Origin: Bacilli bacterium
GTDB taxonomy: Bacteria > Bacillota_I > Bacilli_A > ML615J-28 > CAG-313
Assembly: GCA_051872775.1 (NCBI GenBank)
Contig: JBJEEE010000088.1
Location: 2,762-66,761, forward strand
DNA length: 64,000 bases
Direction: 5' to 3'
Each line of letters begins with the position of its first letter. The first letter of the stretch is position 1. This document shows, one piece after another, positions 9,259-46,064 of the stretch. The notes under the pieces are model-generated. The model ran no database searches and was not told where the DNA came from. It saw nothing but the letters and a program-made list of their open reading frames with translations. A program made the translations under genes and the position numbers.

Positions 9259-9480
9259 TTAGTTGTTTTCTTTTTTTACTGCTTGACTAGCTCTCTTATT
9301 GAAACGTTCAATTCTACCTGCAGCTTGAACAAATTTTTGTTCTCCTGTATAGAATGGATGACATTTAGAACATGTATCAACACGTACTTCTTTTAATGTA
9401 GAACCAGTTTCAAATTCATTACCGCATGAAACACAAACAACTTTAACTTTGTGATATTGTGGATGAATGCCTTTTTTCAT
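9259..9480 (-). CDS. rpmE: 50S ribosomal protein L31 (zinc-binding type A)
   Basis: [23 protein letters not shown]...[10 protein letters not shown] carries the CxxC...CxxC zinc ribbon. The RBS is GGAAGGAG. Confidence 0.9.
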
Positions 9481-9538
9481 AGTTTTACTCCTTCCGCCAT
9501 GATTTTCTTAAACCATAGTAAGTTTATTTTACTTTAGT

Positions 9539-9638: not shown

Positions 9639-12600
9639 TTAAATTTCGCCTTTAAATCCTTTAATAGTATTGATATAACTACTAATAATTGTATTGTAAT
9701 CTTCTTTTGATGCAAGTGGGTTAGATGCATTATATTGATTTGCAAGATCAGGAAGATATGTTTCAATATAAGTAGCAGCTTGAACTTCATTTAAGCCACC
9801 ATGATTAACCATAGTTTCTTTAGTTGCTTCATAAACGATTACCGCAAGCATTGGTCTTAGAATTACAGATTCATTCATATGTCTTAATAGTTTTTCAGTT
9901 TTTGCTGTTTCGAATGAATATAATGAACTTGCAATATCTGTACCATCGATTAATCCTAAATCACGTAAATCAGCAAGAGCATTAGTTAATGCTATTGTTT
10001 CATTAAATTCATCTTCTGAACTTAATGTGCCTAGTGGACGATTGAACTTACTAGATAGGATTGGATTTGTGCCACTTTCTAGTTTTGTAGCAATGACGCC
10101 ATCTTCACCACCAAAGCAACTAATATCAAATACATTACTTACAACAAATAATTGTAACATTTGACGTAATCCAACTTGATTTGCACCAGCAACTTGTGAT
10201 GGGAATAATCCAGAACCAGTTGATACTACATTTTCATATACTGTAATATCTGGGTATGTTGTGCCTAAATCCATTGTATAGATATCAGTAGCACCTTCTG
10301 AATCAAGTTCAAGGGCATTTGCGCAAGCAACAATTATTGCCATCTTAGTTAATTCTTCTTCAGTCCAGAACATTTCATCATAACCAGTATAATCAACTCT
10401 TGAAGTTGCATATTGTCTCTTGAATGCATCAGAGATCATTTCTGCAAGAACAAATGTCGATTTACCTGATTCATCAGAATTATTATTAACTGCATCAGAA
10501 ACAACACCTAAGATTACTTCACGCATAGATAATGCTTTAGATACGGCAATTAGAGTATCTGCAAGTTTAACATAGTCTTTGCTAGTTTCAATTACTACGT
10601 AATCAAAGTCACAAATCTTGTCAGTTGCAGGATCTAGATAAGATGCCATATTAACGATTACTTCTCTAACAGCGACAACTTCGTTATATGCAAGAGCATT
10701 ATCATCAGGGATTAATTCAGTTTTAATGCGAACATTTGAGTTTGGAACTGTAAAGTTAGATTGATCAATTAGTTTTGTTAACCAATATTTGTAATCAGCT
10801 TTTACAGCTTCAATACCATCTTTTCCATTTAATCCAAACATAACATCATATGCACTAAGTACATCATTAAATGTCATATTTGAAATTCCTTGAGAAATAA
10901 CAACATAGATTTCGAATAATTCTTCGAATTCTTCTGCCCATTTATCACGAGGAAGAGTATCAATGTCAATAATTCCTTGAGCATCAGCAGGTAAGTTATT
11001 ATCTACTTTAGTCTTGAATAATTCTTTAAACATTTCGCTTCCAACATAAGATTCAGATGCTTTATCAACAAAGGCAACGAACTTAGTTTGGATTGCACTA
11101 TTTTCAAACATTGAAGTTGTCATATTTTCAATATCGAAGTTAGGATCAGCACATAATGTAGCAAGAGCAGCACACATTTCAGTGAATGATGCAAATTCTT
11201 GATCCCAATCACTAACTACTGATAAATCGATTGATGAAGTATCAACGAATGATAATTTAGAAAGAATCATACTCATTACTGCTTCTTCATTTCCATCTAC
11301 AGCATGAAGAGCGAATAAGTTATCAAGTAATACATCAATATGACCATCTAATGCAGCAAAGTCTAAATCAGCTCCAAAGAAGTTAATATAAGCAGCTTCT
11401 TTCATAACTTTTAGAATTAATAGATAATCATCCATAGCTTGTTCATTAGTATATGAAGGATCATTTAGAGCTGTTAACATGAAGTCAAGAGCATCAGTTG
11501 TAGATGATACTTTGTTAATAACTTTTCTCATAACACGTTTCATATATAATTGAGCAAGTTTAGAATTTTCTAATACTGCACCATTATTAGCAACAGCAAG
11601 TAAGAATTCTTGTGTCATCATTGTTGATGGATCACTAATTGAAATATTTTGAAGTTCAGATTCAATGCCTCTTAAGAATGTTGTGATAATGCTTACTTCG
11701 TTAACGTAATCAACGTTAGCAGCTGCAAGTTCATCACGATCAAGATTAATCTTCATAGCAAACTTAAATGCGGCAGGAATTAAGTCATTTAATAAATCTT
11801 TAGTTACAGGACTAGTAACAACTAAATCAGCAAGAGCAACAATTGTGTCAACATCTTTATAATTAATTGTTCTTCTGAATAAGCCTAATGTTTCAACATA
11901 AGATACAATTTGGAATAAGTCAGGAAGAGCGACATTAACAAATTGAGAATTTGTCATTCCAGTAAACATTGCAAACTTACCATAATTTTCCGTTGCAACT
12001 TTTGTAGTTCCAACAATAACTGGCATAAATACTTGAGCAAGTAAGTCAGATTCAAGTGCTTTATTAACCAATGAAGTTACATCAGCTTGGAATACTGGGT
12101 CACTAACAATACTTAAGTCTTTATTCTTAATGTATGTTACATATGTTTTAACAAATGTAATTAATTGTTTAATTAATCCTTTAGCTACGCTAATTTCATT
12201 AGATGTGCTAGCAGCTTCATAATTTAAGCTTATAACACCGTATTCAGCAATATTTCTAACGAACTTATCGAAATACTTCTTATAAGAACGTAGATTTACA
12301 TTGTTGTAAATTACTGCAAATACTTTATCAGTTAATTCAGAATTTGTGAAATCAACACCATTATTGGAGAATGCACCCATTTCACTTAATGCTCTTAATG
12401 CAACAATAATATCATCACATAAACTATATACTTGTTCGTCTGTCTTTTCAGAGAAAGTAACATTAATCATACTAGATAATTTATTTGTAGCTTTTCTTAC
12501 AATAACAGGCATGAATTCTTTAGATGTTGTAGATTCAAAGAATAATTCAAGTACATCAATAGCAGCATTCATAAATTCAGTATTACCGAATAGATGAACA

Positions 12601-15600
12601 GAGAATCGTAAGTTACTGTCACGAATTACTGTACATAGCATTGGTAATGCTTCTGCAAGAAGGTTGAAATCAAATTCAACATCAATTGTGTTAACATCAA
12701 TATCACTTAAATCTACTTTTACAAGTTTTTCAAGGATATCAACAGCAGCTTGTTTCTTAAGTTCTAGAATTTGTAATTGACCAAATAATCTTACTGAAGT
12801 TTGAGCTGCAGCCATTTGACTATCTGATAATTGAGCTTTTGCTGTATATACTTGATGTAATTTAGATTCGAACAATGCACGTACGGCTTGTGCGAAGATT
12901 TCAACATCACTATCTAGAGCTGCTTTTGTATAGCCTTCAAGTGATAAGTATTCTTCATATGTTCCAAATAAAGATCCATATTTGCTTAATACTTTATTAT
13001 ATACAGGGATGAATGTTTCTACAAATAATTGAGATTCAGCAATTGTTTCAATTATTCTTACGAAACGTTCTTTTTGAACATTGCTTAATAAGTCAACAAC
13101 TTTTCTTGCGAATGATCTACGACTTACTTTTACAGTGTTAATTAAATCTTTAATTTCTGCTTTAACAGCCGATAATGTAGTTAATTCACATTCAGCTAAA
13201 ATGTCAAATGTTTCACTAACAACTGCTTTAATAATTTGTTTTTCTGTTTCACAATCGAATGCAGCAAAATCAATATTAGCAGTATCAATATTAAATTCAA
13301 CGAAGACTGCTTTTACAAGTTCATTGAACTTAGTACTAATGATATTCATACTTAATGCAGTATCAACTATTTCTACAGCTACTTCGCTTGTAGGGAATGT
13401 CAAATCTTTATCAAGTACAAAACGATAGATACGAGATTCATAAACATCTTTTACTAATGTGATTGAAAGTAATACATCATTTGTTAATTGTTCTAATGTT
13501 AATCCATCAGTAGTAAGAACATTTACAATTGATTGTAATCTTCCGCCTACAAATTCTTTTGCTTTGTTGACTACAGTTGGAACAACGTATGGAGCAACTG
13601 AAGTTTGAGCTAAAATTTCATATGCATCAACTAGATATTCACCATATCCTTGTGCATCAATAATTGTTTGTTTAGTTAATAACTTACCAAAGTCATTGAT
13701 AGTCTTAACTGGGAATTCAGAACTACTTAAATATGGAACAAGTACACGATATGCTTGAGCAACTTTATTAGCATCACCAGCTACATCGATTGTTTCATAT
13801 GAAGCACCATATGTTCTTAAGCCTTCAAATTTGTTGCTTAATCTATTAATAATCTTTGCAAAATGTAACTCAATGTAGTTAGTTGAAGCTAAGATATTTA
13901 ATAATTGTTCAACATGATCAGCCATTAAGCCGTCAGCACCTACATAATCAATTGTTTCACCATCAATAATACCAAATACATTCATAGCTACTGCAAGTCT
14001 GATAACTTCAGGTACTTTAACTAAATCAGCATATAATTCTTCGTTAGTTGCACTACGGTAATCAACATACTTAACGTTATCACCTAAGCTTGGAACAGCG
14101 AAAGTATTATATAAAGCAAGTGCATTTTGTTCAATTATTGTTAATTGAGCAACATATTCAACGATTTCAGCAACCTTATTCATTGCAGCATCATTGTTAA
14201 GGAATGCTTTTGAATCAAATGATACGAAGTAGTCACTAACTTCTCTCATTGTGTTATTACCTTCAGATGCCATTAATTCAATAAAGGCACGGAAGATATC
14301 TTTTGCGACGATTAAATCATGTTCAAAGTCTACATTTTCAATATTAAATGCATCTTGTTCAATTGTTACATTACCAAATGTCTTGCCATAAACAAAGTCA
14401 CGAAGTAATAGAGCAACTAAATCATTATAATGACCATCTAATAATTGTAATTCAACTAAGTTATCAATAATTGCGTCTACGTCTGATTCTAATGCAGAAT
14501 ATGCAAGTGAACCATCACCAATTGCGTTATAATCAAGATTTACTAATGTTTCAATGATTGCCATAATATATGGAGTATCATGGTTGATCATTTCAGCACT
14601 ATAATTATCTAAATCAAGCGCAGTCCAATAATCATTTAATACATTCTTTAATAATGGAAGGATAACAATAAGAATTGCAGCACCAGTTTCACCATAAAGA
14701 GTTGTATTCATATAATTCTTAATTGCAGCAAGTTCAAGATCTAGATTTTCTTGTCTTAAGAAGAAGTTAATTGATACAGAAATCTTATTATCAATATCTT
14801 CCTTATTCTTAATTGGGAAGTCTGGATTTGTCAATACTGCAGAAATGTTTTTAACCATTTCAACAATGTCATCAGCATCATCTGCAAGAGAGATGTTGTT
14901 TCCATTAACTGAACTTAAATCAACTGATGTGATTAAGTTATCTAAGCCATTAACGAAGGCATCCATTCTACCAGGATTGTTAAAGTAATTTAATGTAAAT
15001 AAGTTATTAATAATATTAGTGAAGTTAAATGTTCTATCGAATGGATAATCAGCATTACCAATTAAGCAATCATAGATATTTAGACTTTGAATATTAGATA
15101 ATACTACATATACATTATGTAAATCACTATTTAATTCAGATACATTACTATAAATATTATGTAAATCTGCAAGTCCTGCAAGTTTTTCACTAGATAGATA
15201 CTTTTCAGAAATAGGCATAATTACAAATGCGAATAAATCATCTTTGTATAATACATCAATGATATCAGCAAGAGCTTGAATATTTTCATTGAATGATTTA
15301 TCAATTCTCAAACCTTTACCAGCAATAATACTTACTACTTTAGCTATTTCTTCATAAGTTGTTATCTTGTAATTTTCAAAAATTGTGAATACACTATCAA
15401 GAATTGTAACGATTGAATCATATTCTTCTCTGAATACAACTGTTCCAACAGCTCTTGATGCATCAATTCCTAATTTATCGAAAATAGAAAGAACAACGTT
15501 ATTACCATTATTAACTAAAACATTAAGGTTAAGTACTTTTTCAATTGCTTCATATAATGTTGCTTTTGCATTGTAATTGATTTCTGCTTTTGTGAACATT

Positions 15601-18600
15601 TGTTCAACAACACCAAATTCAATTAGTTTTCTTAAAGCTACAACTATTGATTTAACATCTTCTGTTACTTCATTATTGTCAACTTTATCAGTAAGATATG
15701 TTAAACTTAATCCGCTTGTTTCAAGTTTAGCAAGACCAAAATCAACAAGATCTTTTGATAAAACATTGAATGTAGCAAGGTTAGAGATTGCTGCAACTAC
15801 ATCAACTAAATTATTAGCATTTTCTGAAGTTGCATATTGTTCTTGAAGTTTGAATCCTCTAGCTTGTAAATCTTTAATATTGTCAATAGAAACTAAGTCT
15901 GTTTCAACTAAGAATTTATCTACAGCACTAACTAGTTCTTGGAATAAATCATTTTCTGCATCCCAGTCAACACCAACAAAGTCGCTTTCAGAAACTCTAA
16001 TGTCAGATTTTAGTGCATGTGCAAGACAATTTGCAAGTGATGCAGCCCATGCATTTCTATTTAAATTATAGATTCCAAGTGATGGAATTAAATCAATTAC
16101 AGGATTTAAGTATTCAACATTCAAGAATTGAAGTTGTTTTGTATTAATAATTTCGAATAAACCAAACTTACATAAAGGCTTAAACATTTGAACTAATACA
16201 TCAACATCATTCTTAACTACTTCCATTTGAAGTGATGAAGCTAAGAATAATAAATCTAAGTTAAAGTCATATGCCTTATTTATAGCAAGACAAACAACTT
16301 GAGGGAATAAGCATTCAACGCTATTGAAACTTAATACAAGTTTAATAGCATCAGCTATTAATGCTACGTTAGTATCAGTATAAGTTTCTTCTAAAGTGTG
16401 TTTCTTTTCATCTTTGAAGAATGATACAACTTCGCTATATTTGTTGAGGTTATTATTATCAAGGATTTCACCTAATTTCAATACTAATGATTGAAGAGTA
16501 ACATTATCTGATTTCCATTGTTCATCAGTTAATGAAATTACAGAGTAATCAATTTCTTGATCTATCTTCAATGCAGTAACGGCTTTATCAATTAGAATAT
16601 TTACCCAAGAATTTCTATATTTAGTGAATACTAATGCATTTTCTATTTCAGCAACAGCATTTGCAATATATTCTACTTCAATTGATGAAATATCTTTTGT
16701 ATCAATGTATTCTTTTACGCCAAACGCAAGAAGATTTTGAACGATATTTAGGATTGGAGAAACATCGTTTGCTAAATCAGATGATGCATATGAACCTTCT
16801 AAGAATGAAATATCATATCCAGCATCAGCGGCTTTAACTACAGCATAATGTAATACTTTAGGGAATACTACATTTACAGTATGAGTGCCGATTAAATTAG
16901 ATAGAACAACTTTAAGAGTTTCTAGATTATTATTGAAGATTTCTTCTAGATTGTCTTTATAAGTGCCTTGAGACATATAAACTTGAACTGCTGTTAAATA
17001 TGTTAAGCCTTGTTCTTCTAATAGATCACATAATGCCACTAAAGCATTTTGTAATTTTTGATTATCTTCTGCCCATTGTTCAGCTGTGATTGCATTAAAT
17101 TCAGATGCTTCAACACTAATTTCAAGTGATGCAAGTACTTTATTTAATCCAAGAGCTAACCAATTGCCACGAAGTTTACTATAAACATTAACTTCAGCTA
17201 ATTTTGCAACTATTTCAGATAGTGCAACTCTATCATATGATAAAACAGCAATATCAAATAAGAAGTCACGTACACCTAATTGAAGAGCTTTTCTTGCGAT
17301 TTCAACTACGCTTTGAACGTCTTCAACTAATTCAGATGAAGTAAATGTATCATTGTGCATTGCTTCTTTTAAGAAGTCAAGATCACTACCTGTAATCTTA
17401 TCAACACCCCATCTTGAGATGATAGGAAGTAATACTTTAAGGGTTTGTGCAGATATTAATGTATCTACTACATTAAGTGCTAATTCTACATTTTCATTCG
17501 TTACAAATTCTTGTTTTGTATAGTTCTTGCTTTCTACAAATTCTTTAACTTGAGTTGAAGATTCAAGACCTAATGTGTCTAATAGAGTTTGTACTTCAAG
17601 TAATGTATTATTAACTACAGTCATTTCATTTGATAGATCTAATCCTGCAAATGAATCTACTGTTACTCTTTCTTCGATCTTTAATGCTTCAAGTAATTTG
17701 TTAGATAATACTACTAACCAATTAGCATTAAAGTTAGAATATAATACTGTATTTTCTAATTCAAGAAGAGCTTGTCCAACATATTGTAATTCAATTGTTG
17801 AAAGTTGTTTTTCTTTGATGATTTCTTCAATGCCAAAGTCAACTAAGTTTTCAGCTGCATTTAGGACAGGAAGAACATCATTAGCTAAATCAACTGCATG
17901 ATAATTTCCTTCTAAGAATGAAATATCTACGCCAGCATTTTCAGCTTTTACTACAACGTAGTGTAATACTTTATCGAAGATTACATCTGTTGTATTTGTA
18001 TTTAATAGGTTAGAAATAATTTCGCTTAATAATTCTTTGTAACCTAATAATTCTTTATAATCAGGAGCACTTACGTAATTTACAATTGCACTCTTATATG
18101 TTAAGCCTAATCTTTCCATTAATTCAGCAACGCTAACTAAAGCATTTTGAAGTAATTGATTATCTTCTAACCATTGTGCATTTGTTAATACATCAAGTTC
18201 TTCTGGTGTAACATTAATTTCAAGAGCGCTTAAGGCTTTATTTAATCCTAGAGCAACCCAATCAGAATGAAGTTTATTGAAAATATGAATGTTTTCAATT
18301 TGACTTACGATTGTAGCTACAAGTCCGCCATCAATTGTTTCCATATCGATGTCAAAGATTGCATCAAATACGCCTAAAGCAACACAATTTCTAGCAATAC
18401 TAATAACTGTCTTAACATCTTCTACTAATTCTTCAGCAGTAAATGTATCATTGTGCATTGCTTCTTTTAAGAAGTCAAGATCACTACTTGCAATCTTATC
18501 AACACCCCATCTTGCGATTACAGGAAGCAATACTTTAAGGGTTTGCATTTGTTGAATATCTTCAACCGCATTTAAGACGATATCTAAAGTTTCATCAGTA

Positions 18601-21600
18601 ACATATTGTCCATTGATGTAACCTTTATCTTGAATGAATTGTTTTAAATCGTTTGTTGAAACGATATTAAGAGCTCTTAATAAAGCATCAACTTCGCCAA
18701 GGGCATCAACTAAATGCATAATTTCATTATCTGGATTTAATCCAGCGAATGAATCTACTGTTACTCTTTCTTCAACATTTAATGCGGCAAGTAATTGGTT
18801 AACAGTAAGAACTAACCAAGATTCTTTGTCAACTGCATAAATGTTTAATTCATTAAGCATTGTTAATACATTTTGTAATTTAACAATTTGGATTTGATCA
18901 AGTTCTTGATAGAAGAAATAATCAATTGTTCCAAATTCTACAATTTCTTTTAACATTGCTGCAACAGTTCTAATATCAGCTGATAACTTTTCACCTGTTA
19001 AATCAGATTCGAAATGTGATTCTAAGAAGGATACATCAAACTTATCAGTGGAAACTTTAGAAACACCGAATTTAGCAAGAACTGGAAGAGCAGGTTCAAT
19101 TACTCTGATTGTTCCAACTAAATCAACAATTTCTACTAATGCAAGAGCATTTTCGTTATTTGCATATTGTGCAAGAGTATAAAGTTTATCTTTAAAGAAT
19201 GATTGAACATCTTCGATTGTATTAAGGTCATTAGCCTTTAATAATGCTTCTAATCTATCAACGATTTCAATTATTGTATTTACATCATTTGACCATGTAG
19301 TAGCATTCATCATTGCAAAGTCTTCAGCTGAAACAGTGTTTTCAATCTTTAATGCTTTAAATAATTGGTTGAATCCAAGTGCAGCCCAATTGTCAATTGC
19401 AACAACAATAGTATTTAATCCAGTAGCTGTAACTAAGATATTCTTAATTAAATCATAATTAAGTTCTGGAAGTTTATTAAAGTATACATAATCAATTACA
19501 CCAATTTCTACGGCATCTTTGATTATTGATGCAAGTGATTGAATATCACTTGATAACATTTCACCAGTTAATTCTCTATTTTCAAGAGCATCAACAAGGA
19601 AGCTTAAATCAACATTTGCAATGTTAACTTTTTCAGATAATGCATAGCGAACTAGATCATCAAGGGCAGGAGACAACGCTTTAATACCGCCTAATGTTTC
19701 GATGATTTCAGCAATAACTAATACATTTTCATCAGTTACATATTGTGCAAGTGTATAATACTTGTTATTAATAAATTCAGTTAGTTCGCTAGATGAAGTA
19801 ATACTGCTTTCATCAAGTAATTCACCAATTAAACCAACAATATGAGATAGACTTTCAAAGTCTTGATCCCATTCAGCTCTATTCATAGTGATGTATTCAT
19901 TTGCACTTACATGATATTTATTTTCATCTAATTTTAGAGCTTTAAATACTTGTGTAAAGATATTTTCAAACCATTTAGCTTCTGATAAATGGAATAAATG
20001 TAATTCATTAATATTAGCTATAATATTTTGAATTGGTTCAACATTTATTACTGATAATTGTTGAGTGAAATAAATTTCTATAGCACCAAAGTCTAGAACA
20101 TTACGAACCATTTCAATAACTGTACGTAAATCATCTTTGATGTCACTACTGATATATTCATGATTATCAATAGCAGTGCTTACAAACTTCATATCAGGAA
20201 GAGCTTCATTACCAATGATTACATAATCAATTAGAGATGACAAGCCTTTTACAAGATATGGATCTATAAAGTTAATACCAATAATTGTATCAACAACAGA
20301 TAAAATATCGCTTACGTTTTCATCTGTAACATATTGTGCAGATGTATAACCTTTTTCTTTAATGAATAAATTGATATCATCATAGAATGTTAAGTTGTTA
20401 TTCTTAGCGATTTCGCCAATACTATTAACGATTGAAGCAAGAGTTGCGAAATCTTCATGCCATGCATCATTTGTCATATATGCGAAGTCTTCAGGTTGAA
20501 CTCTAACAACAGATTTAGCAAGTTCAAAGCCAATATTTGATGCAAAGGAAATCCAACTATTGTAATCTATTTCAAGAACATGTAATGTGTCAATCTTTTC
20601 AATAATAGATGAAATATATTCAAATTTAACTTCAAATGGTTGTTCTTCGTATACTTTATAAACTAAGTCTAAAGCACCGAAGTTTACACCATCAACAACG
20701 ATAGCCATTATTGTGCGAATGTCTTCAGCAAGAACACTACCACTTAATGTACCATCTTCAAGATATGGTTCAACAAATGATAAGTCATACTTTTCAGGTA
20801 CTTTACTTAATCCATATTGAGCAAGTTTAGGAAGCATTGATTGTAAAGGAACAATTGTTGTAATTGTATCTACAATTTCAGTGATACTAATTACAGCTTC
20901 ATCAGTAATATAAGTAGCTGAAGTATATCCTTTTCCACTTACAAATGAAGTTATTTCTTCTAATGATTCTAATTGCCAATAAGCTAGTAATTCTGCAAGT
21001 TGACTAACAACAGATTTAACTGTTTGAAGTGATTCAGTTGCGATTTCATCTGTAATTGTTGCAAAGTCTTCAGCTGTATATCTTACATCAAGTTTAGCAG
21101 CAGTCATTACAGTGTTTGCAATGAATTCCATCCAAGTTTCACGATTTACTTGGAATAGTTCCATTTGATCAATTTGATCAAAGATTGGATTTAATTTATC
21201 TAATTCAACCTTTTGAAGTGTCTTTGTTTCAAGATATTCAAATAGACCAAATTCAATCATTGTTTTAGCAATTTCACCAAGATTAATTACATCATGGCTT
21301 AATACTTCACGTGTTGCAATTTCTTTTATAAATTGAACATCAATATCTTTAAATAATGCAACATTTGCAAGTTTATCAACACCAAATGAAACAAAATCAT
21401 TAACAATTGGATCAATTAAATTAATAGCAAGAACGTTACTTAATGCATCTACAACACAATCAATTAATGTGTTAGTGAAGATATCATAGTTGCTATATTC
21501 TTTATTTGAAATAAATTGTTTAATACTTTCGATAGAGTATCCAGCAGGGAATAATTCATCTAAAGCACTAACTACAGCAAATAAAGCATTACCAAGTTTT

Positions 21601-24600
21601 TCAGTATCATTTGTCCATTGTTCATCTGATAATCCAGCAAAGTTTTCAGCATTATAACGTACATTGAAATCTTTAATATTTAATTTATCAAGGGCAAAGT
21701 TAACTACAAATGCAGTCCATTCACCAGCAAATTTAGCAAGAATATTTACATTTGCTAGTTGATTTGCAATATCTTTAACAACGGCTTCATTAAGATTGCC
21801 AATTGTTTCGTTCTTGTAAAGTTTTACGGCACCAAGGTCAATTAAATCAATTACAATATTTGCGAAAGTTACGATGTCGTTTGCAATTTCATCATTAGTT
21901 AACTTAGCTTCATCAACAAATCTGATATCATAACCTGCTTCATATGCTTTATCAATTCCAAAACTTAAAACTTGAGGAAGAAGAGCTTTAACTGTACCCA
22001 TATTTGCTAATTCTTTTACAGCACTAACAATATGGCGACCATTAACTTCTGTAACAATTACTTTTACATCTGCTTTTACTTCATCAAGATATTTTGTAAC
22101 ATCTCTATAAACAACTAGATGGTTGTCTGCAGCAAAGTTTTGAACAATTGTAAGTATTTGTTGAATACTTGTGAATTCATCATTCCAATCAACATTTTCA
22201 AGATCACTTGCGGAAAGTGTAAAGTCAGTTAATTTTGCAAGTGCAAATGCTTTATTGATTAGAGTGCTCATTAATTCATTTTCATGTTTTGTTACTAGAT
22301 TTAATTCGTTAATCTTACCAACTACAGCTTTAGCGGTTTCTAATAATCCGTAAACATTTTTAGATTCAACTTCAACAGTCTTATTAACTATGAAGCATGC
22401 GATACGTTCTTCAACAAGAACATTAATAATTTCTACAAGTTTATGAACGTCAGCTTGTAATTCTTCAGCTGTTAAATCATTAATAAATTGTAAATCAATT
22501 ACTTGTTTTGCTAATTGTTCTAATCCATATGAAACAACATCTGGAAGAATATTTGCAACTAATTGTGAATTTACAACTTCATCAAGAAGTCCAGCAACAA
22601 GGCTTATATTATTATCAGTGATGTAAGCTTTTAAGCCTTCAACAACGTTACTACTATTCTTAACATTGTTAATAAAATCAGTGATTTGTGCAACATTTTC
22701 AAATTCATTTACTGCTAGAATATTAAGAACAATTGAAACAACTCCTTTAATTGTTGCTACTTCATTGTCCCAATTAGTAATTGATTGTACATTGAAACTT
22801 TCAACACTAATAACATCATTCTTTGGTAGATATTTTTCTAGTGCAAATTGAACTAATTCATTTTCATATCCTTTAACAAGATTTAAGCTGAATAATTTAT
22901 CAATTATTTCATTAACAGCTGTATCTTCAGGAAGAACGATAGCTTCACCTTGGAAACTTGCTCTCCACATTTCAACAAAGTCAATATCATTGACTAAGAT
23001 TTCAGCAATTTCAGTTACAGAATATAAGTCTTCAACTAATTCTTCTCCTGTTAGACTACCTTCCCAGAAATCTTTAGAAATAACATTATTAGATACTAAT
23101 TGATTAACTACTACTTGGAATGCGATTGGAGCGATTGCTTCGATTGTATTTAATTCAAGAGCAGTATTTAATATTTCTAAAACGCGGTTTGCATTTTCTG
23201 TAGTAACAAATGAAGTTGTTAAGTAACCTTTTTCATTAATGAAGTCAATTAGTTCAGCAGTAGATTCAAGGTTATTTACTTCTAAGAATTCAATTATTTG
23301 AGTGATTAAAGCTTTTGCAGTTTCTGCTTCAACTGCCCAATCAACTCCTGCAAAATCCTCTGCAGTAACTTCTTCAATGTTATATTGTGCAAGGAATTTA
23401 CCACTAACATAATTGATAATCCATGCAAATACTTCATTTCCACATGGTTTCAACATTTCCATACCAAGCAATGCATCAAGAATATTATAAACATTCTCAA
23501 GTTTATCGGTATAAACAATTGAACCATTTACAAATATAGTTTGTAGATCCATTTCAACTAATTGACGAGCAATGTATGTTAAGCGTCTTACATCACTTGC
23601 AAGTAGTGCAGAATCTAGATTTTCTAAGTCAACAATTTCAACTAAACCTTTAAATTCTTCAGGAATAGATTTAATTACATAAGTTGACATAATATTTGGT
23701 AATAATGCTTCTACTAATTTAGAACCACTTGTTTCAACAAAATTACCATTTTCGTCTTTTTCAAGTGTACCTAAGACAATTTCAACACCACTCATTAGTT
23801 GTGAGAAAATCTCAGGTTGAGTTATGTATTCAAGATCAAGAGTAACATTACCAGCTTCATCGAATAAAACGAAGTTAGGATCTTGTAGTACATTTTCAAT
23901 TGCATGAATAAAGTTTACAAGCATTTCTTGTTCGCCATCAAAGTTGATATTGTCTAATAAACCTTTTTCAATATCTAAAATCTTTGTTGCTTTAAAGATA
24001 ATACGAATAACTCTACCTTCAACACCATCAAGAATCTTAGAATCAAAGATTGTGTTGATAATATTGATTAATGCATCTGTTTCACTATATTTTAGTGAAC
24101 CTAGTCCATTCTTAGCTACATCAAATAAACCAAGAGTTTGCGCATCTTTGATTGCTTTAACTATTTTGATAATTTCTTCTGCCATTTCTTTGTTAGAAAT
24201 ATTGTTGAAGATATCTTTAACAAGATTATCATCATCAAATTCATTTGTAATTGGAAGAAGATATTTGTTAACAGCAGGATCAATCAATGAAAGTGTTAAA
24301 TCAGAATCAACTAATTCTTCAAGAATACTTACTAGAATATCAACACCGTCTTCGTTATCAAGTAATGCAATGAAGTCAATATTCAAGTCTTTCATATTAA
24401 CTTCATCTAGAAGTACAAATTGTTTGTATATTTCTAATATGTTTTTGATTGTATCAATTTCACCAATGTTATCACCATCTGTAGTCCAGTTAACATTTTC
24501 AAAAATAGATACTTTTGATGTGCCATCAGCAGATGTTACATATAAATCATCAACGTCTAATAAATTGAATTTAATTATTGCAGCAAGAACTAAATCATTC

Positions 24601-26531
24601 TTAGTCTTATCATCACCTAATAGATTTAGTGTTAATACACTTTGAACAATTTCTTTCATTGCATCGATTGCTTCTTTGCTTTCGATATCCATTTGTTTTA
24701 AATCAAGAGATAAAACATTAATCTTATCGACTGCTAGTTTTGCAACTTCAATAATTGCATTGATGTCTTCTTTCCATTGTTCAATTGTTAAGTCTTTTAG
24801 ATTGATGATGTTTGCAAATTCAGTAAATCCGTTTTGTTCATTTGCTAAGTAGCTATCTACAGCAGATTGAGCAACAGGAATAAGAATATTGTTAAATACG
24901 GTCATTTCTGTTAAACGTTCTAATAGTTTAACTGTTACATCTGTTTTGTTAACAATTAATGATTCAACCAAGTCATTAACATTAGCATCTGTAATTTGTG
25001 CTAGATCAGTATATCCATATTCTTTAAAAATTGTGTAAACATCAACAAGACCATTTAGTTCTTCTTTCCAAGAAATATCACTTAAGTTTAAATTCTTAGG
25101 ATCATAATTTCCTGTAAGATTTTGTACTGCTTCAAGTTTAACACCTGTTTTAACTAAGATTGGAAGAAGAGTGTTAATGAATTCACCCTCGCAAAGAGCA
25201 TTGATAACTTGGTTTAAAACTTGTTCATTCATTGTTAAAACGTTGAAATCTTCAAGTGGGAATAAATCAAGTTTATATACTTCTTTAACTGTATCAAGGA
25301 TAGTTTCAACTTCTTTGTCCCAATCAAGGTCTCTTAATGCTAGGAATGCAGTTGTTTGCATTGCCTTATCAAGAGCAGCTTTTAAGAACTCAATTTCACT
25401 TGCATATTCAATCGCTACTGGCATTGCTTCTGGAAGCAACTTAGAATCTTTCAAAACGTCTAATGCTGCTGCAAGTTGTTCATCAGTCCATGTACCTACT
25501 TCGATATTTCCTTCAAGTGCATTAACTGCTTCAAGATAAACGATTAATTCTTGACGTAGTTTAATGTTTTGAGTTGAAGTATTGATACTAGCCATTGAAT
25601 CAAATAATAGCGTACTTAATGATTGTCCAAAGAAATATGAAGAGCTTTCTACAAATTTCCCAACAGCACTGTCTTTGTATTCATCAACAAAGTCAAATGC
25701 CATATCTACTGGACCATTTTGTTCTGCTACATTTTGTTGTGTTTGGTTACCTGTAACAAGATCAGAGATTAATTCTCTTGTTTCAGGAGTTGCAGTTTTC
25801 ATAATTGAATAAATGCCTGAAATAGGTGCAAATAGTAAGATAATTAAGAAAACACCTTTTAGAACACCTGCAACGGCACCCCATACGCGTTTCTTACTCT
25901 TCTTAGGCTCAGGTAGTTCTTCTTCAGATACAGTTACTACTGCATCATCAGCACCTTCCACACCTTTTAAGACAAGTATTGCATCGTCTGCTTCTTCGTT
26001 ATTAGCATTTTCTTCTGCTGATTCTTCCGAAGCATTTCCATCTGCAGCTTGTTTTTTAGCTTTGTGTTTCTTAACACCATGAATAATTAGTATCACAATG
26101 TGACTAATCAATCTGATGATAGGAGTAATAATTACTACTACAAGCGTGCTAACAACCAATAAAACGATTGTTGCGATGCAAGAGCAAAGATTATATACAA
26201 AGCTATATGTCTCTTTTCCTTCTACTAGTAATGCACTTAGGTTTAGTCCCTCTATTGATTTTAAGTAATCAAGAATAGTCTCCCAAACCGTTGCATCCTT
26301 TTGTGGCAAATTCAAAGTACTTCTAATTGTATCAACTAAACCACCACTGTAATTTAGTAATACACCAGAATTACCAAAAACAAGCCAAGCCAATACTAGT
26401 AAAATGATGAAGACAGCGATGCACGATAGTTCTCTTTTTAGACCTCCTAAAAAGCCCCAAAGTGCGAATAAGATTACTATTCCGAGCAATCCCAACCCGA
26501 GAATTAGTAATATCAGATTAAAATCCATCAT
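9639..26531 (-). CDS. Giant (5,630 aa) membrane-anchored acidic repeat protein. An N-terminal CvpA-like polytopic module is followed by a low-complexity acidic linker and a very long predicted alpha-helical region with tandem ~185-aa and ~366-aa repeats.
   Basis: A single uninterrupted ORF of 16,893 nt. The RBS AGAGGTG lies 5 nt before ATGATG. The N-terminus has 3-4 TM helices (LFALWGFLGGLKRELSCIAVFIILLVLAW ... KKSKKRVWGAVAGVLKGVFLIILLFAPISGIY). The body is rich in D, E, L, V, I and N and carries recurring motifs (KxYTxAQYVTDENV and ExWxxxxxNxLxxALKIEERVTVDSFAGL). Its own promoter and terminator flank the gene. Confidence 0.85.
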   Translation of the reverse strand: MMDFNLILLILGLGLLGIVILFALWGFLGGLKRELSCIAVFIILLVLAWLVFGNSGVLLNYSGGLVDTIRSTLNLPQKDATVWETILDYLKSIEGLNLSALLVEGKETYSFVYNLCSCIATIVLLVVSTLVVVIITPIIRLISHIVILIIHGVKKHKAKKQAADGNASEESAEENANNEEADDAILVLKGVEGADDAVVTVSEEELPEPKKSKKRVWGAVAGVLKGVFLIILLFAPISGIYSIMKTATPETRELISDLVTGNQTQQNVAEQNGPVDMAFDFVDEYKDSAVGKFVESSSYFFGQSLSTLLFDSMASINTSTQNIKLRQELIVYLEAVNALEGNIEVGTWTDEQLAAALDVLKDSKLLPEAMPVAIEYASEIEFLKAALDKAMQTTAFLALRDLDWDKEVETILDTVKEVYKLDLFPLEDFNVLTMNEQVLNQVINALCEGEFINTLLPILVKTGVKLEAVQNLTGNYDPKNLNLSDISWKEELNGLVDVYTIFKEYGYTDLAQITDANVNDLVESLIVNKTDVTVKLLERLTEMTVFNNILIPVAQSAVDSYLANEQNGFTEFANIINLKDLTIEQWKEDINAIIEVAKLAVDKINVLSLDLKQMDIESKEAIDAMKEIVQSVLTLNLLGDDKTKNDLVLAAIIKFNLLDVDDLYVTSADGTSKVSIFENVNWTTDGDNIGEIDTIKNILEIYKQFVLLDEVNMKDLNIDFIALLDNEDGVDILVSILEELVDSDLTLSLIDPAVNKYLLPITNEFDDDNLVKDIFNNISNKEMAEEIIKIVKAIKDAQTLGLFDVAKNGLGSLKYSETDALINIINTIFDSKILDGVEGRVIRIIFKATKILDIEKGLLDNINFDGEQEMLVNFIHAIENVLQDPNFVLFDEAGNVTLDLEYITQPEIFSQLMSGVEIVLGTLEKDENGNFVETSGSKLVEALLPNIMSTYVIKSIPEEFKGLVEIVDLENLDSALLASDVRRLTYIARQLVEMDLQTIFVNGSIVYTDKLENVYNILDALLGMEMLKPCGNEVFAWIINYVSGKFLAQYNIEEVTAEDFAGVDWAVEAETAKALITQIIEFLEVNNLESTAELIDFINEKGYLTTSFVTTENANRVLEILNTALELNTIEAIAPIAFQVVVNQLVSNNVISKDFWEGSLTGEELVEDLYSVTEIAEILVNDIDFVEMWRASFQGEAIVLPEDTAVNEIIDKLFSLNLVKGYENELVQFALEKYLPKNDVISVESFNVQSITNWDNEVATIKGVVSIVLNILAVNEFENVAQITDFINNVKNSSNVVEGLKAYITDNNISLVAGLLDEVVNSQLVANILPDVVSYGLEQLAKQVIDLQFINDLTAEELQADVHKLVEIINVLVEERIACFIVNKTVEVESKNVYGLLETAKAVVGKINELNLVTKHENELMSTLINKAFALAKLTDFTLSASDLENVDWNDEFTSIQQILTIVQNFAADNHLVVYRDVTKYLDEVKADVKVIVTEVNGRHIVSAVKELANMGTVKALLPQVLSFGIDKAYEAGYDIRFVDEAKLTNDEIANDIVTFANIVIDLIDLGAVKLYKNETIGNLNEAVVKDIANQLANVNILAKFAGEWTAFVVNFALDKLNIKDFNVRYNAENFAGLSDEQWTNDTEKLGNALFAVVSALDELFPAGYSIESIKQFISNKEYSNYDIFTNTLIDCVVDALSNVLAINLIDPIVNDFVSFGVDKLANVALFKDIDVQFIKEIATREVLSHDVINLGEIAKTMIEFGLFEYLETKTLQKVELDKLNPIFDQIDQMELFQVNRETWMEFIANTVMTAAKLDVRYTAEDFATITDEIATESLQTVKSVVSQLAELLAYWQLESLEEITSFVSGKGYTSATYITDEAVISITEIVDTITTIVPLQSMLPKLAQYGLSKVPEKYDLSFVEPYLEDGTLSGSVLAEDIRTIMAIVVDGVNFGALDLVYKVYEEQPFEVKFEYISSIIEKIDTLHVLEIDYNSWISFASNIGFELAKSVVRVQPEDFAYMTNDAWHEDFATLASIVNSIGEIAKNNNLTFYDDINLFIKEKGYTSAQYVTDENVSDILSVVDTIIGINFIDPYLVKGLSSLIDYVIIGNEALPDMKFVSTAIDNHEYISSDIKDDLRTVIEMVRNVLDFGAIEIYFTQQLSVINVEPIQNIIANINELHLFHLSEAKWFENIFTQVFKALKLDENKYHVSANEYITMNRAEWDQDFESLSHIVGLIGELLDESSITSSSELTEFINNKYYTLAQYVTDENVLVIAEIIETLGGIKALSPALDDLVRYALSEKVNIANVDLSFLVDALENRELTGEMLSSDIQSLASIIKDAVEIGVIDYVYFNKLPELNYDLIKNILVTATGLNTIVVAIDNWAALGFNQLFKALKIENTVSAEDFAMMNATTWSNDVNTIIEIVDRLEALLKANDLNTIEDVQSFFKDKLYTLAQYANNENALALVEIVDLVGTIRVIEPALPVLAKFGVSKVSTDKFDVSFLESHFESDLTGEKLSADIRTVAAMLKEIVEFGTIDYFFYQELDQIQIVKLQNVLTMLNELNIYAVDKESWLVLTVNQLLAALNVEERVTVDSFAGLNPDNEIMHLVDALGEVDALLRALNIVSTNDLKQFIQDKGYINGQYVTDETLDIVLNAVEDIQQMQTLKVLLPVIARWGVDKIASSDLDFLKEAMHNDTFTAEELVEDVKTVISIARNCVALGVFDAIFDIDMETIDGGLVATIVSQIENIHIFNKLHSDWVALGLNKALSALEINVTPEELDVLTNAQWLEDNQLLQNALVSVAELMERLGLTYKSAIVNYVSAPDYKELLGYKELLSEIISNLLNTNTTDVIFDKVLHYVVVKAENAGVDISFLEGNYHAVDLANDVLPVLNAAENLVDFGIEEIIKEKQLSTIELQYVGQALLELENTVLYSNFNANWLVVLSNKLLEALKIEERVTVDSFAGLDLSNEMTVVNNTLLEVQTLLDTLGLESSTQVKEFVESKNYTKQEFVTNENVELALNVVDTLISAQTLKVLLPIISRWGVDKITGSDLDFLKEAMHNDTFTSSELVEDVQSVVEIARKALQLGVRDFLFDIAVLSYDRVALSEIVAKLAEVNVYSKLRGNWLALGLNKVLASLEISVEASEFNAITAEQWAEDNQKLQNALVALCDLLEEQGLTYLTAVQVYMSQGTYKDNLEEIFNNNLETLKVVLSNLIGTHTVNVVFPKVLHYAVVKAADAGYDISFLEGSYASSDLANDVSPILNIVQNLLAFGVKEYIDTKDISSIEVEYIANAVAEIENALVFTKYRNSWVNILIDKAVTALKIDQEIDYSVISLTDEQWKSDNVTLQSLVLKLGEILDNNNLNKYSEVVSFFKDEKKHTLEETYTDTNVALIADAIKLVLSFNSVECLFPQVVCLAINKAYDFNLDLLFLASSLQMEVVKNDVDVLVQMFKPLCKFGLFEIINTKQLQFLNVEYLNPVIDLIPSLGIYNLNRNAWAASLANCLAHALKSDIRVSESDFVGVDWDAENDLFQELVSAVDKFLVETDLVSIDNIKDLQARGFKLQEQYATSENANNLVDVVAAISNLATFNVLSKDLVDFGLAKLETSGLSLTYLTDKVDNNEVTEDVKSIVVALRKLIEFGVVEQMFTKAEINYNAKATLYEAIEKVLNLNVLVNNGNNVVLSIFDKLGIDASRAVGTVVFREEYDSIVTILDSVFTIFENYKITTYEEIAKVVSIIAGKGLRIDKSFNENIQALADIIDVLYKDDLFAFVIMPISEKYLSSEKLAGLADLHNIYSNVSELNSDLHNVYVVLSNIQSLNIYDCLIGNADYPFDRTFNFTNIINNLFTLNYFNNPGRMDAFVNGLDNLITSVDLSSVNGNNISLADDADDIVEMVKNISAVLTNPDFPIKNKEDIDNKISVSINFFLRQENLDLELAAIKNYMNTTLYGETGAAILIVILPLLKNVLNDYWTALDLDNYSAEMINHDTPYIMAIIETLVNLDYNAIGDGSLAYSALESDVDAIIDNLVELQLLDGHYNDLVALLLRDFVYGKTFGNVTIEQDAFNIENVDFEHDLIVAKDIFRAFIELMASEGNNTMREVSDYFVSFDSKAFLNNDAAMNKVAEIVEYVAQLTIIEQNALALYNTFAVPSLGDNVKYVDYRSATNEELYADLVKVPEVIRLAVAMNVFGIIDGETIDYVGADGLMADHVEQLLNILASTNYIELHFAKIINRLSNKFEGLRTYGASYETIDVAGDANKVAQAYRVLVPYLSSSEFPVKTINDFGKLLTKQTIIDAQGYGEYLVDAYEILAQTSVAPYVVPTVVNKAKEFVGGRLQSIVNVLTTDGLTLEQLTNDVLLSITLVKDVYESRIYRFVLDKDLTFPTSEVAVEIVDTALSMNIISTKFNELVKAVFVEFNIDTANIDFAAFDCETEKQIIKAVVSETFDILAECELTTLSAVKAEIKDLINTVKVSRRSFARKVVDLLSNVQKERFVRIIETIAESQLFVETFIPVYNKVLSKYGSLFGTYEEYLSLEGYTKAALDSDVEIFAQAVRALFESKLHQVYTAKAQLSDSQMAAAQTSVRLFGQLQILELKKQAAVDILEKLVKVDLSDIDVNTIDVEFDFNLLAEALPMLCTVIRDSNLRFSVHLFGNTEFMNAAIDVLELFFESTTSKEFMPVIVRKATNKLSSMINVTFSEKTDEQVYSLCDDIIVALRALSEMGAFSNNGVDFTNSELTDKVFAVIYNNVNLRSYKKYFDKFVRNIAEYGVISLNYEAASTSNEISVAKGLIKQLITFVKTYVTYIKNKDLSIVSDPVFQADVTSLVNKALESDLLAQVFMPVIVGTTKVATENYGKFAMFTGMTNSQFVNVALPDLFQIVSYVETLGLFRRTINYKDVDTIVALADLVVTSPVTKDLLNDLIPAAFKFAMKINLDRDELAAANVDYVNEVSIITTFLRGIESELQNISISDPSTMMTQEFLLAVANNGAVLENSKLAQLYMKRVMRKVINKVSSTTDALDFMLTALNDPSYTNEQAMDDYLLILKVMKEAAYINFFGADLDFAALDGHIDVLLDNLFALHAVDGNEEAVMSMILSKLSFVDTSSIDLSVVSDWDQEFASFTEMCAALATLCADPNFDIENMTTSMFENSAIQTKFVAFVDKASESYVGSEMFKELFKTKVDNNLPADAQGIIDIDTLPRDKWAEEFEELFEIYVVISQGISNMTFNDVLSAYDVMFGLNGKDGIEAVKADYKYWLTKLIDQSNFTVPNSNVRIKTELIPDDNALAYNEVVAVREVIVNMASYLDPATDKICDFDYVVIETSKDYVKLADTLIAVSKALSMREVILGVVSDAVNNNSDESGKSTFVLAEMISDAFKRQYATSRVDYTGYDEMFWTEEELTKMAIIVACANALELDSEGATDIYTMDLGTTYPDITVYENVVSTGSGLFPSQVAGANQVGLRQMLQLFVVSNVFDISCFGGEDGVIATKLESGTNPILSSKFNRPLGTLSSEDEFNETIALTNALADLRDLGLIDGTDIASSLYSFETAKTEKLLRHMNESVILRPMLAVIVYEATKETMVNHGGLNEVQAATYIETYLPDLANQYNASNPLASKEDYNTIISSYINTIKGFKGEI
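15400..21000 (-). repeat. In-frame tandem coding repeats inside the giant gene (period ~550-590 nt, arranged as ~1098-nt double units)
   Basis: The motif G/K-Y-T-x-A-Q-Y-V-T-D-E-N recurs at about 20900, 20320, 19730, 19150, 18590 and 17500, and in degenerate form further on. Near-identical nucleotide blocks lie at 17341-17455 vs 18439-18553 and at 17650-17675 vs 18748-18773, an offset of 1098 nt. The boundaries are approximate. Confidence 0.6.
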
Positions 26532-34655: not shown

Positions 34656-37600
34656 TTATTCTTGATAGCCCCAAACTACAGTGATATCAGTTGAATTCCA
34701 ACCATCAACCCAACCATCTGGTTTAGATGCGGCGGCACATTTAATTGTTTTTAATTCCGTACAACCAACAAAGATAGCTCTTGCAATTGTAGTTACACTT
34801 GATGGAATTACGATATCAACTAAATTTGTACATCCGTTAAAAGCATTTAGATTAATAGTTGTAATTGTATTAGGCATATTAATCTTAGTAACTGTTGTAG
34901 CATTAACAAAGGCATTAGAAGCAATACTTACTACAGTGTATTCGACTTCATTAACGTTAACAGTTTGAGGTATAGTTACTTCGTTTGCGCTACCATTATA
35001 GTTAACAACTTCTGCTTGGTTTGTATCAGCAGCTCCATCTACACCTTTAATTGTTTCAACAGTGATATACATATCATCAATGACTACGAATTCACCACTT
35101 ACTTTACGACTACCTACTAATTGATCAAAGTTTTGTGCCCATGTAGCTGGTAATGTATATGATACTGTTCCATCTGAACCAGCAGTAGCAGTAATTGCGT
35201 TAGTTAATAATACCGCTAATGATAAGTTAGCAAAAGCGTTAGAACCAACATTTACAACTGTTTCAGGAATATAAACAAAGTTAAGACGTGCACATCCTTC
35301 AAAGGCTTTTGAACCAATGGTTTCTACTAATTCAGGAATAATTAATTTAGTAAATGAAGATGACTGACAATTGTAGAATGCGGAAGCACCAATTACTTCA
35401 AGAGTTGAAGGAAGAATAAAATTAGCAATACTTCTACATCCTTCAAAGGCACTTTCACCAATCTCAACTAAGTTAGCTGGGAAGTTTACATCAACTAAGG
35501 AAGTACATGATTTAAAGATACCTTTTGGAAGAACTGTAATTAAACTTGGGATAGTTACTGCTGTAACACTTGCACATCCTTCAAAAGCACTTTCCCCAAT
35601 GTATGTGATTTTTTCACTTAATGGAAGTTCCGTAACACAAGCACAACCATTGAAGGCACTCTCTTCAATTACTTCTATATTATCTACATTATTTACAGAT
35701 ACTAACGAACTGCATTTTTCAAACATTCTAGTTGGAATTGTCTTTGTTGATGAAGGAAGAGTAACTGTTTGAAGACGAGAGCAATTATAGAATAATCCTT
35801 CAGGAAGTTCTGTAATACTATTAGAAATTACAACTTCTTTTAGATTATTTGCACCACTAAAGGCATATGGATTAATAGTTTCGACAGAACTTGCAATTGT
35901 GTAACTTTCTTTTGAATCACCGGCAACATATAGCATTAATACCTTACCATCTTTAGATAAAAGAGCACCGTTTTCCAATTTGTATTTTGGATGATCATCA
36001 GAAATTGATAATGTTTGAAGTGATGACCAATTACGGAATGCACCTACGCCGATAGTTTCTACTGCTTGAGGAATACTAATACTTTTTACTTTGTTACAAT
36101 CTGCAAATGCATAGTCACCAATATATTTGATTGATGATGGAAGAGACAACTCTTGAATACCTGTGCAACCTGAGAATGCTCGTTTACCAATAGATTCTAA
36201 TTTATTTGATTCAGTATCAAATACAACAGTAGTTAATGATTGACAATTGATAAAGGCATTATCACCAATTGATTCTAATTCAGCGTTGAAAGTAATACTT
36301 GTTAAATATACAACATTGATAAAGGCAGCATCATGAATCTTAGTTCCTTTTAACACTGTTACTTCAAGCGTCTCTGGATTTTCTCCACCTAAAATACAAT
36401 CAAATGATGGATTATCAGCTTCTTCTTTATTTCCTACATAAGGAATAGTAAGTGATTGTAAATTAGTACAACTTACAATTGCTTGTTCTGAAATTTCAAG
36501 AACAGTTGCAGGAATAACTAAATTAGTTAATGAACGACAATCCGTAAATGCACCAGCATGAATATATTTAACTTCAGCAGGAATTACAAAACTTGATACA
36601 GTACTTGCGGATAAATATTGAACAAGTTCTGACATATCCTTCGTATATAATACTAAAGATGAGTATTTTTTTGAACCTTCAGTGATTTCGTTTACTACAA
36701 ATTTATAACTTGGATTATCTTCACTTATGATTACTTTCTTTAAAGCACGGCAATTATCAAATACTTTATCACCAATCGAAGTAACATTGGAGAAATCTGC
36801 TGATGTTAATGCTGTACATCCCGCAAAAGTACGATCTTCAATTGTAGTTACACCTGTTGGAATAACAACTGAAGTAAGTTTAGCACAATTCATAAATGCA
36901 GCTTCGCCAAGCGATTCAAGATTTGTAGGTAATACAAAACCAGCAAGTTTTGAACATCCCTTGAAAGCATATGATCCTATTCTTTTAACATTGTTAGAGA
37001 TGTTAACAGTAATTATTGAAGAACAATCAACAAAAGCAAAATTAGGAATATCATAATCGCCTGCAATTGTTATTTGCGTTAAGCTTCTTGGTACATTGTT
37101 ACTATTATTGCTTGAATTTGTAGAACCAAAGATATATCCAAATAAAGTAGTTTTATTAAATACATATTCACCTTGTTGGTCTTTTACTAGTTCGCCTGTT
37201 CCTTTATCAACTGTAAAACCAGTACCGATAAATGGTAAACTTATACTCTTAAGTCCACTGCATCCTTCAAAGGCACCAGCACCGATACTCTTTACAGTAG
37301 TTGGAACAACTATATTGGCAAGGCTTGTGCATCTTGCAAAAGCTGAGCCTTCAATAATTTCAACAGATGGTGATAATAATTGAGAAACTATGCTATCTGT
37401 TAATGAACTACATCCTGCAAAAGCATTTTGTGAAATCTTAGTTAAATTAGTAGGAATATTATTAATCGTAGCAAGTTTTGCACAACCTGAGAAAGCATCA
37501 TTTCCAATATTATTTATTGATGAAGGAAGTGTAATTGTAGTTACAAACTCTAAATCTTTAAAAGCTTTTTCAACTATCTTTTCTCCACCAGTTATTTCTA

Positions 37601-44555: not shown

Positions 44556-46064
<1,509 letters not shown>

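Follow-up and report, generated by a model that had tools for sequence, protein, structure and literature searches.

Probable short-tract conversion and in-frame deletion between diverged tandem blocks of a giant repeat protein gene from an uncultured lineage of Bacilli

We have analysed a stretch of 64,000 nucleotides (nt), here called the window, from contig JBJEEE010000088.1 (assembly GCA_051872775.1) of a Bacilli bacterium, in which a region of in-frame repeats (15400-21000) falls in the centre of a single giant open reading frame (ORF) encoding 5630 amino acids (aa). The repeats are very probably explained by an old duplicated block with short-tract conversion and deletion by recombination in an anchored giant repeat protein. 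One two-unit block of 366-371 aa would have been duplicated in tandem, copy B followed by copy A, within a membrane-anchored protein of about 26 units. The copies would have diverged to about 45% aa identity, with synonymous saturation over most of their length; non-reciprocal exchange between them would later have replaced the sequence of two patches of about 115 nt and about 80 nt, giving rise to perfect runs of 50 and 26 nt. Recombination between misaligned copies B and A would have produced an in-frame deletion allele of 1113 nt with its junction in a 20-nt identity. An earlier note on this DNA had proposed recombinational homogenisation of the array; that interpretation is supported, with the corrections given below, one of which concerns the orientation of the giant gene, encoded on the minus strand.

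The two copies of the block form an in-frame tandem and are offset by 1098-1113 nt (Table 1). They are identical at 209 of 468 aa (44.7%), which agrees with the 45-50% proposed earlier for neighbouring double units; they differ at about 35% of nucleotide positions, and synonymous sites are saturated between them over most of the block. Unit 13 is 51% identical to unit 15 and unit 14 is 39% identical to unit 16, while the identity among all the other units is 14-36% in the unit identity matrix. A sliding comparison at the 1098-nt offset reveals raised identity only for about 16930-17720 against 18028-18820. The array as a whole is not organised as double units of 366 aa, as had been supposed; the signal at this offset comes from one duplicated pair only. 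The repeats are indeed present in 15400-21000, the extent first given for the array, but the units reach far beyond it, from aa 343 to aa 5146.

The motif Y-T-x-A-Q-Y-V-T-D-E-N, thought to recur at least nine times, occurs in its strict form only five times (aa 2062, 2259, 2451, 2638 and 3004), while at least a dozen units of the 26-unit alignment begin with a degenerate form of it. Its spacings of 561, 576 and 591 nt fit the 560-590 nt described before. Tandem Repeats Finder reported nothing in this region, its repeats being too diverged and of a period above 500 nt.

Two islands of identity stand out between the diverged copies. In the first, 102 of 115 nt are identical (88.7%) between 17341-17455 and 18439-18553, in keeping with the earlier figure of about 90%; the perfect run in it is present and measures 50 nt (17340-17389 against 18438-18487), not 49. 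Island 1 encodes QTLKVLLP..RWGVDKI..SDLDFLKEAMHNDTFT. The second holds a run identical at all 26 positions (17650-17675 against 18748-18773), as described. The encoded peptides SDLDFLKEAMHNDTFT and EERVTVDSF are likewise found as stated, when read from the minus strand in the giant ORF. In 20 codon-shuffled controls of the gene the longest exact direct repeat is 14-19 nt and never more, which puts the runs of 50, 26 and 23 nt far outside what chance would give. No 31-mer of the whole window is repeated except the 20 that fall in the 50-nt run.

Copies B and A were aligned codon by codon with O, the orthologue of a sister species (locus L012) that has a single copy of the block and is the one outgroup lineage used at the nucleotide level. 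Outside the islands (non-island head) the site patterns group B with O, with counts of 174 for BO|A, 78 for AO|B and 74 for AB|O. Inside the islands the grouping flips to A with B, with 39 sites of AB|O against 10 of BO|A and 8 of AO|B (Fisher p=1e-10). The synonymous divergence (dS) between A and B falls from 1.02 outside to 0.18 inside the islands and the nonsynonymous divergence (dN) from 0.61 to 0.04. Between B and O, dN is 0.28 both inside and outside and dS is 0.86 inside against 0.75 outside; the islands are therefore not specially constrained between species. These patterns, which bear out the homogenisation proposed in the earlier note, indicate that the islands probably arose by short-tract gene conversion between A and B after the lineages of B and O had split, and not by constraint.

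The same locus has been retrieved from other samples through exact-protein look-ups of neighbouring genes. Two loci of sample SRR30616827 (L003 and L007) are 100% identical to the window. An independent MEGAHIT contig (L008) matches the window at 99.18% identity and follows it colinearly for 13,064 nt, without gaps, through both copies; its giant gene is called as 5629 aa. Two further loci from unrelated runs (L001 and L002), 99.1% identical to the window, have a giant gene called as 5258 aa. Conspecific strains, about 99% identical, thus carry either the long or the short gene, and the strain-to-strain length polymorphism that had been predicted is found.

The short allele lacks 1113 nt, and the difference between 5258 and 5630 aa is made up of these 371 codons and a single codon at another place in the gene. 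Aligned with both copies, L001 is B-like up to a 20-mer that they share (3 differences in about 575 nt) and A-like after it. Both L001 and L002 are Logan contigs built at k=31; an identity of 20 nt is too short to bring separate paths together at this k, and the reads themselves must therefore contain the junction. The deletion allele would thus be the product of an unequal crossover, that is, of homologous recombination between misaligned copies B and A.

There is also a hint that exchange between the copies may still be going on. In copy B of L008 all four single nucleotide polymorphisms (SNPs) at 18150-18155 are changed to the state of copy A, while the window and L001 keep the other state; such a micro-tract would make a new identity of 33 nt between the copies. 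Taken together, the features by which concerted evolution of an intragenic tandem repeat is recognised, namely in-frame paralogous units, tracts of synonymous similarity, phylogenetic incongruence and an in-register length allele, are all found in this gene.

The 50-nt run also has consequences for assembly. In a de Bruijn graph with k=31 it predicts unitig ends at 17369, on entering copy A from below, and at 18458, on entering copy B from above. The contig L003 starts at 17369, and the contig L009, common to eight samples, ends at 18458. The locus had been described as prone to collapse in short-read assemblies; breakage of contigs at the predicted positions is what is observed, and collapse is not seen.

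Some points weigh against the account given above. The islands had been delimited from the A-B comparison before they were tested, which inflates the p-values somewhat; the effect is large, and the B-O control is independent of the choice of islands. The strain evidence consists of metagenome contigs, not of isolates or long reads, and the micro-tract of L008 comes from one MEGAHIT contig. The Logan contig L007, of the same strain as the window, ends at 18528, within the island of copy B and not at a 31-mer common with copy A; the A/B repeat does not account for this end, which may be due to a co-occurring strain variant. The extracellular location, the rod shape and any function of the giant protein, which are considered below, are inferences only. 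Lastly, in four related giant proteins (P0008, P0010, P0009 and P0011) a unit resembling unit 13 is followed directly by a unit resembling unit 16, which bears on the age of the duplication.

By parsimony this arrangement in four species favours a single-copy ancestor and a younger duplication. An alternative built on it places the duplication after the split of the sister species, with very fast divergence of the inner halves (B tail and A head) and the islands as leftover identity; the outer units 13 and 16 are, moreover, those that resemble the outgroups. We regard it as unlikely on several grounds. Neutral synonymous divergence should be uniform along such a block, yet it ranges from 0.1 to saturated. 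Outside the islands copy A stands at the same distance from B, from O and from P0008 (46, 45 and 44% identity), irrespective of its own rate, which places the lineage of A at or before these splits, and it is closer to these three than more distant species are. The AB|O sites outside the islands are not commoner than the AO|B sites, and in quartets drawn with five outgroups (B,O)|(A,X) leads by 60:26:24, counts that long-branch effects could bias. The paralogue-directed cluster of SNPs in L008 points to continuing exchange.

The equidistance of A and the quartet counts speak, in turn, for a duplication that preceded those splits and was then lost repeatedly. The sequence of O resembles the head of B joined to the tail of A, and the changeover lies about 25 aa downstream from the junction in L001. 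The duplication may predate the splits and have been lost repeatedly, L001 showing that such loss is possible; alternatively, it dates from near the split, with faster divergence of its inner halves. Under either age of the duplication, exchange at a later time is needed to account for the islands.

Purifying selection on the most constrained parts of the motif, keeping the islands alike, has been largely refuted and is a very improbable explanation. Family motifs seen repeatedly across the 26-unit alignment (LP..., D..FL and the VT.D.F loop) do fall in the islands, and codon bias is strong, the expected codon identity given the same amino acid being about 0.55, which raises the chance of nucleotide identity. 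Synonymous sites are identical too, however. Where all three sequences have the same amino acid, A and B use the identical codon in 31 of 32 cases within the islands and in 54 of 90 cases elsewhere, so that 1 codon differs as against 36 (p=3e-5). The orthologue O shows no extra conservation in the islands, and the 39 nucleotide states common to A and B are held against O. Constraint at the protein level is unable to give this pattern and constraint at the nucleotide level would have conserved O too, which is not the case; short-tract exchange accounts for the whole pattern. An embedded RNA or regulatory element was also considered for the islands and rejected, since the orthologue is not conserved there and the giant gene has no Rfam match.

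That the tandem block or the islands are chimeric, and the short allele a collapsed assembly, is equally improbable: the locus does break short-read assemblies and every comparison sequence is a metagenome contig, but the full arrangement is reproduced in the independent gapless contig L008, contigs of another sample match the window exactly on both sides, the difference of about 35% between A and B precludes confusion outside the 50-nt run, and the deletion junction, in an identity too short for joining at k=31, occurs in two unrelated runs with the frame kept.

Table 1. Positions of the features described in the text, in coordinates of the window
Feature	Position	Strand	Description
Giant ORF	9639..26531	minus	5630 aa, 16.9 kb; starts with ATG; free of internal stops (translation table 11)
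N-terminal membrane anchor, aa 1-245	25797..26531	minus	Four hydrophobic segments: aa 1-32, 28-60, 109-153, 215-245
Repeat array, aa 343-5146	11094..25505	minus	About 26 diverged units, predicted all-alpha, each about 185 aa, by iterated hidden Markov model
C-terminal 484 aa	9639..11093	minus	Outside the unit model matches; no Pfam or PDB sequence match
Copy B, two-unit block, aa 2571-2936	17724..18821	minus	1098 nt, 366 aa; upstream copy in the gene
Copy A, two-unit block, aa 2937-3307	16611..17723	minus	371 aa; downstream copy; 5 codons inserted as compared with B
Island 1, copy A side / copy B side	17340..17455 / 18438..18553	minus	50-nt perfect run; two further exact runs (23 nt, 17 nt)
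Island 2, copy A side / copy B side	17623..17703 / 18721..18801	minus	84% identity; holds the 26-nt perfect run
Segment missing from the 5258-aa allele (L001, L002)	16815..17927, equivalently 16795-17907	minus	1113 nt, 371 codons, in frame
Shared 20-mer GATATTTCATTCTTAGAAGG (gene strand; DISFLEG)	16795..16814 (copy A), 17908..17927 (copy B)	minus	Copies 1113 nt apart; putative crossover site
Candidate micro-conversion tract	18150..18155 (copy B); putative donor 17052-17057 (copy A)	minus	Four SNPs in 6 nt
992-aa paralogue	26794..29772	minus	ATG start, MNLISI...; CvpA-like N-terminus and 2-3 of the same units of about 185 aa; directly upstream of the giant gene

The giant protein is very acidic, with a net charge of -454. 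Its N-terminal stretch MDFNLILL...LFALWGFLGG is conserved among the giant homologues listed, and loops rich in Lys and Arg follow hydrophobic segments 1 and 3 of the anchor. Applying the positive-inside rule to these loops, we infer that the repeat region lies outside the cytoplasmic membrane. A signal peptide, an LPXTG motif and a wall-binding domain were not found by Pfam, and the protein has no C-terminal hydrophobic segment.

The repeat units were delimited with a hidden Markov model (HMM) built from three seed units of the central region. The first pass identified 15 significant units (aa 938-3731) and iteration extended the array to the 26 units of Table 1. The same model detects arrays in independent orthologues, as well as the units of the 992-aa gene, and no units in a shuffled version of the giant protein used as control. 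Plus-strand ORFs across the region (for example 17575-17901) have been taken as chance frames within the minus-strand gene.

AlphaFold2, supplied with the 26-unit alignment, gives a confident all-alpha model of the unit, with a predicted local distance difference test score (pLDDT) of 92.3 and a predicted template modelling score (pTM) of 0.85. A model of two units, based on a unit-pair alignment (A4) of non-overlapping pairs, is confident as well (pLDDT 90.2, pTM 0.83), which suggests that neighbouring units may pack rigidly. The repeats would form a stiff rod or fibre, roughly like other giant surface proteins with helical repeats, and a change in the number of units would change the length of the rod or the surface exposed.

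Searches for known families returned little. Nothing significant was found in Pfam or NCBIfam for the giant protein or for its 992-aa paralogue, a sub-threshold match to DUF760 (17.9 bits, below the 20.2 cut-off) having been disregarded, and FIVAR, the GA module and DUF1542 have no Pfam match at E<=0.1 over the whole giant protein. The unit models have no match by Foldseek in PDB (best E >=1.2, TM score <=0.29). Sequence searches of PDB gave no convincing match, the one exception being a marginal match of the unit profile (A3, positions 22-78) to residues 193-249 of the vinculin head (57 residues, E=6e-4, 23 bits). Vinculin has no Pfam match in the giant protein and no support from Foldseek, and the similarity is probably one of composition or helix pattern.

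Homologues of the giant protein have been identified in several related lineages. The sister species that provides O is syntenic with the window and 72% identical to it at the nucleotide level, with a giant gene of 5264 aa. Housekeeping genes change far more slowly than the giant protein, whose identity between the window and this species is 62% as compared with 91% for LysS (lysS occupies 44577-46064 in the window). A nearer lineage, L011, is 88% identical, and its contig stops at 19543. A more distant syntenic lineage has a giant gene of 4443 aa. In the lineage of L013 the giant protein is about 29-36% identical and LysS 85%. This distant lineage was the only one retrieved when genome contigs were scanned with a profile from the A/B/O alignment, the species of the window being apparently absent from the representatives scanned.

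An exhaustive profile search among 1.84 billion representatives yielded 172 clusters, 23 of which are giant proteins (3857-6731 aa, 14-32 units detected) whose N-terminus in every case resembles that of the window protein. Some of these members show younger internal duplications, with units 72-96% identical. In P0012 the units 13-16 are present twice. The largest, P0007 (6731 aa), has about 11 extra units resembling units 13, 15 and 16 in an array of 32, and its units 21 and 22 are 96% identical. Unit pairs 53-79% identical at a spacing of two or three units occur in P0013, P0014, P0015 and P0018, as exemplified by units 12 and 14 of P0013 (79%); the value of 100% for units 1 and 2 of P0013 probably comes from overlapping HMM envelopes. 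Unit number thus varies among orthologues, with independent central expansions in the orthology maps. The centre of the array is a recurrent site of expansion and contraction, independently in other species.

The 992-aa gene directly upstream of the giant gene belongs to a conserved cassette. The order murA, a gene of about 1000 aa and the giant gene is kept in at least three other lineages (L011, L012, L014-L017). The N-terminus of the paralogue resembles the CvpA/Colicin_V family (PF02674; 21.0 bits, E=3.5e-4, profile positions 1-126 of 144). Neither this match nor that of the giant N-terminus (10.5 bits, E=0.62) reaches the gathering threshold of 29.3 bits, and the resemblance may serve as a lead only, homology not being established.

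The host is an uncultured lineage of low-GC (guanine and cytosine) Bacilli known from metagenomes. The nearest named relatives of its LysS bear the labels Bacilli bacterium (93% identity), Mollicutes bacterium (87%) and Acholeplasmatales bacterium (78%). The GC content is about 30% throughout, and the related contigs encode the sporulation genes Coat_F and YabQ. The neighbours of the giant gene are ordinary chromosomal genes, namely murA, fumarase, a BspA-type leucine-rich repeat (LRR) gene, lysS, htpG, ftsH, tilS, ddl, murF and sufBS, among which murA, ddl and murF belong to cell-wall synthesis. The BspA-type protein (1290 aa; LRR_5, 10 stretches; 34656-38528, minus strand) is encoded a few genes upstream and is kept in the syntenic loci too. 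Its presence near the giant gene suggests a cluster of envelope or surface genes.

Just downstream of the giant gene lies a small rpmE gene (about 9260-9480), called as a 73-aa Ribosomal_L31 protein in related contigs. An L31-Firmicutes leader (Rfam RF03156, 34.4 bits, just over threshold) is found between the stop of the giant gene and rpmE, at 9488-9518 on the minus strand. A perfect 18-nt tandem repeat, AGTTGGTTTAGATTCTTC, with 2.4 copies and 100% match, occupies 51756-51799 near the 3' end of ftsH (51714-53789, minus strand).

The repeat dynamics described here are a well-documented and ordinary phenomenon, while the protein family itself is undescribed and uncharacterised. The arrays of alpha C/Rib, protein A and Aap/SasG, surface proteins of Gram-positive bacteria, consist of near-identical units that vary in number at high frequency and undergo concerted evolution. 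They share with the giant gene the in-frame tandem units, the polymorphism in unit number by recombination between units and the concerted evolution. Unlike in these arrays, the units here are anciently diverged (17-36% identity), and one block pair only (45%) retains identity enough for conversion and crossover.

Ebh, a giant acidic membrane-anchored surface protein of staphylococci, is made up of tens of tandem FIVAR-GA helical-bundle modules forming a rod; its unit is about 126 aa long and its anchor is a single C-terminal helix. The giant protein is similarly giant, acidic, membrane-anchored and built of tandem modules predicted to be helical. It differs in the absence of any match to FIVAR, GA or DUF1542, in its unit of about 185 aa and in an anchor that is N-terminal and multi-pass. 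Its four hydrophobic N-terminal segments recall CvpA/Colicin_V, with scores below the Pfam threshold, and its tandem helical bundles recall vinculin-type repeats, with a sequence match limited to 57 residues.

The closest described analogue that we have found is the set of Giant1-3 proteins of Apilactobacillus kunkeei, very large extracellular proteins (3,000-8,000 aa) of fructophilic lactic acid bacteria that consist mostly of parallel alpha-helical repeats predicted to form stiff rods, with N-terminal beta-solenoid and C-terminal DUF5776 beta domains (PMC12863079). They diversify in the population mostly by short intragenic recombination, with hotspots in the helical-repeat regions (PMC12863079). 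They too are giant proteins of low-GC Firmicutes with alpha-helical repeats and recombination. The window protein, in contrast, shows no beta-solenoid or DUF5776 by Pfam, has an N-terminal anchor of four segments and exchanges sequence between paralogous units of one gene. The likeness is one of description and no sequence relationship is claimed; homology to Giant1-3, Ebh, vinculin or CvpA is not established.

The locus combines in a single gene short-tract gene conversion, deletion by unequal crossover and breakage of assemblies, and offers a clean worked example for long diverged protein repeats. The length of the gene differs by 371 codons among strains that are about 99% identical, and an identity of 50 nt fragments assemblies of k=31 at predictable coordinates. 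Orthologue tables and pangenome counts for the giant gene are unreliable without long reads.

As a joint reading, which we put forward tentatively as quite possible if somewhat short of probable, the giant gene and its partner of about 1000 aa would represent an undescribed family of envelope proteins of uncultured Acholeplasmatales-like gut Bacilli. They would combine a CvpA-like multi-pass anchor with 14-32 all-alpha modules of about 185 aa, of a predicted fold without a solved relative, and the centre of the array would be a growth zone in which blocks of several units are duplicated, converted and deleted. The giant gene takes about 17 kb in each genome examined and is syntenic across the related contigs examined. 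This conservation of position, together with its fast evolution, suggests an important role of the giant protein at the envelope or the host interface in this uncultured gut lineage. If the joint reading is true, the growth zone would tune the length of a rod of about 100 nm and would diversify its surface much faster than the rest of the genome.

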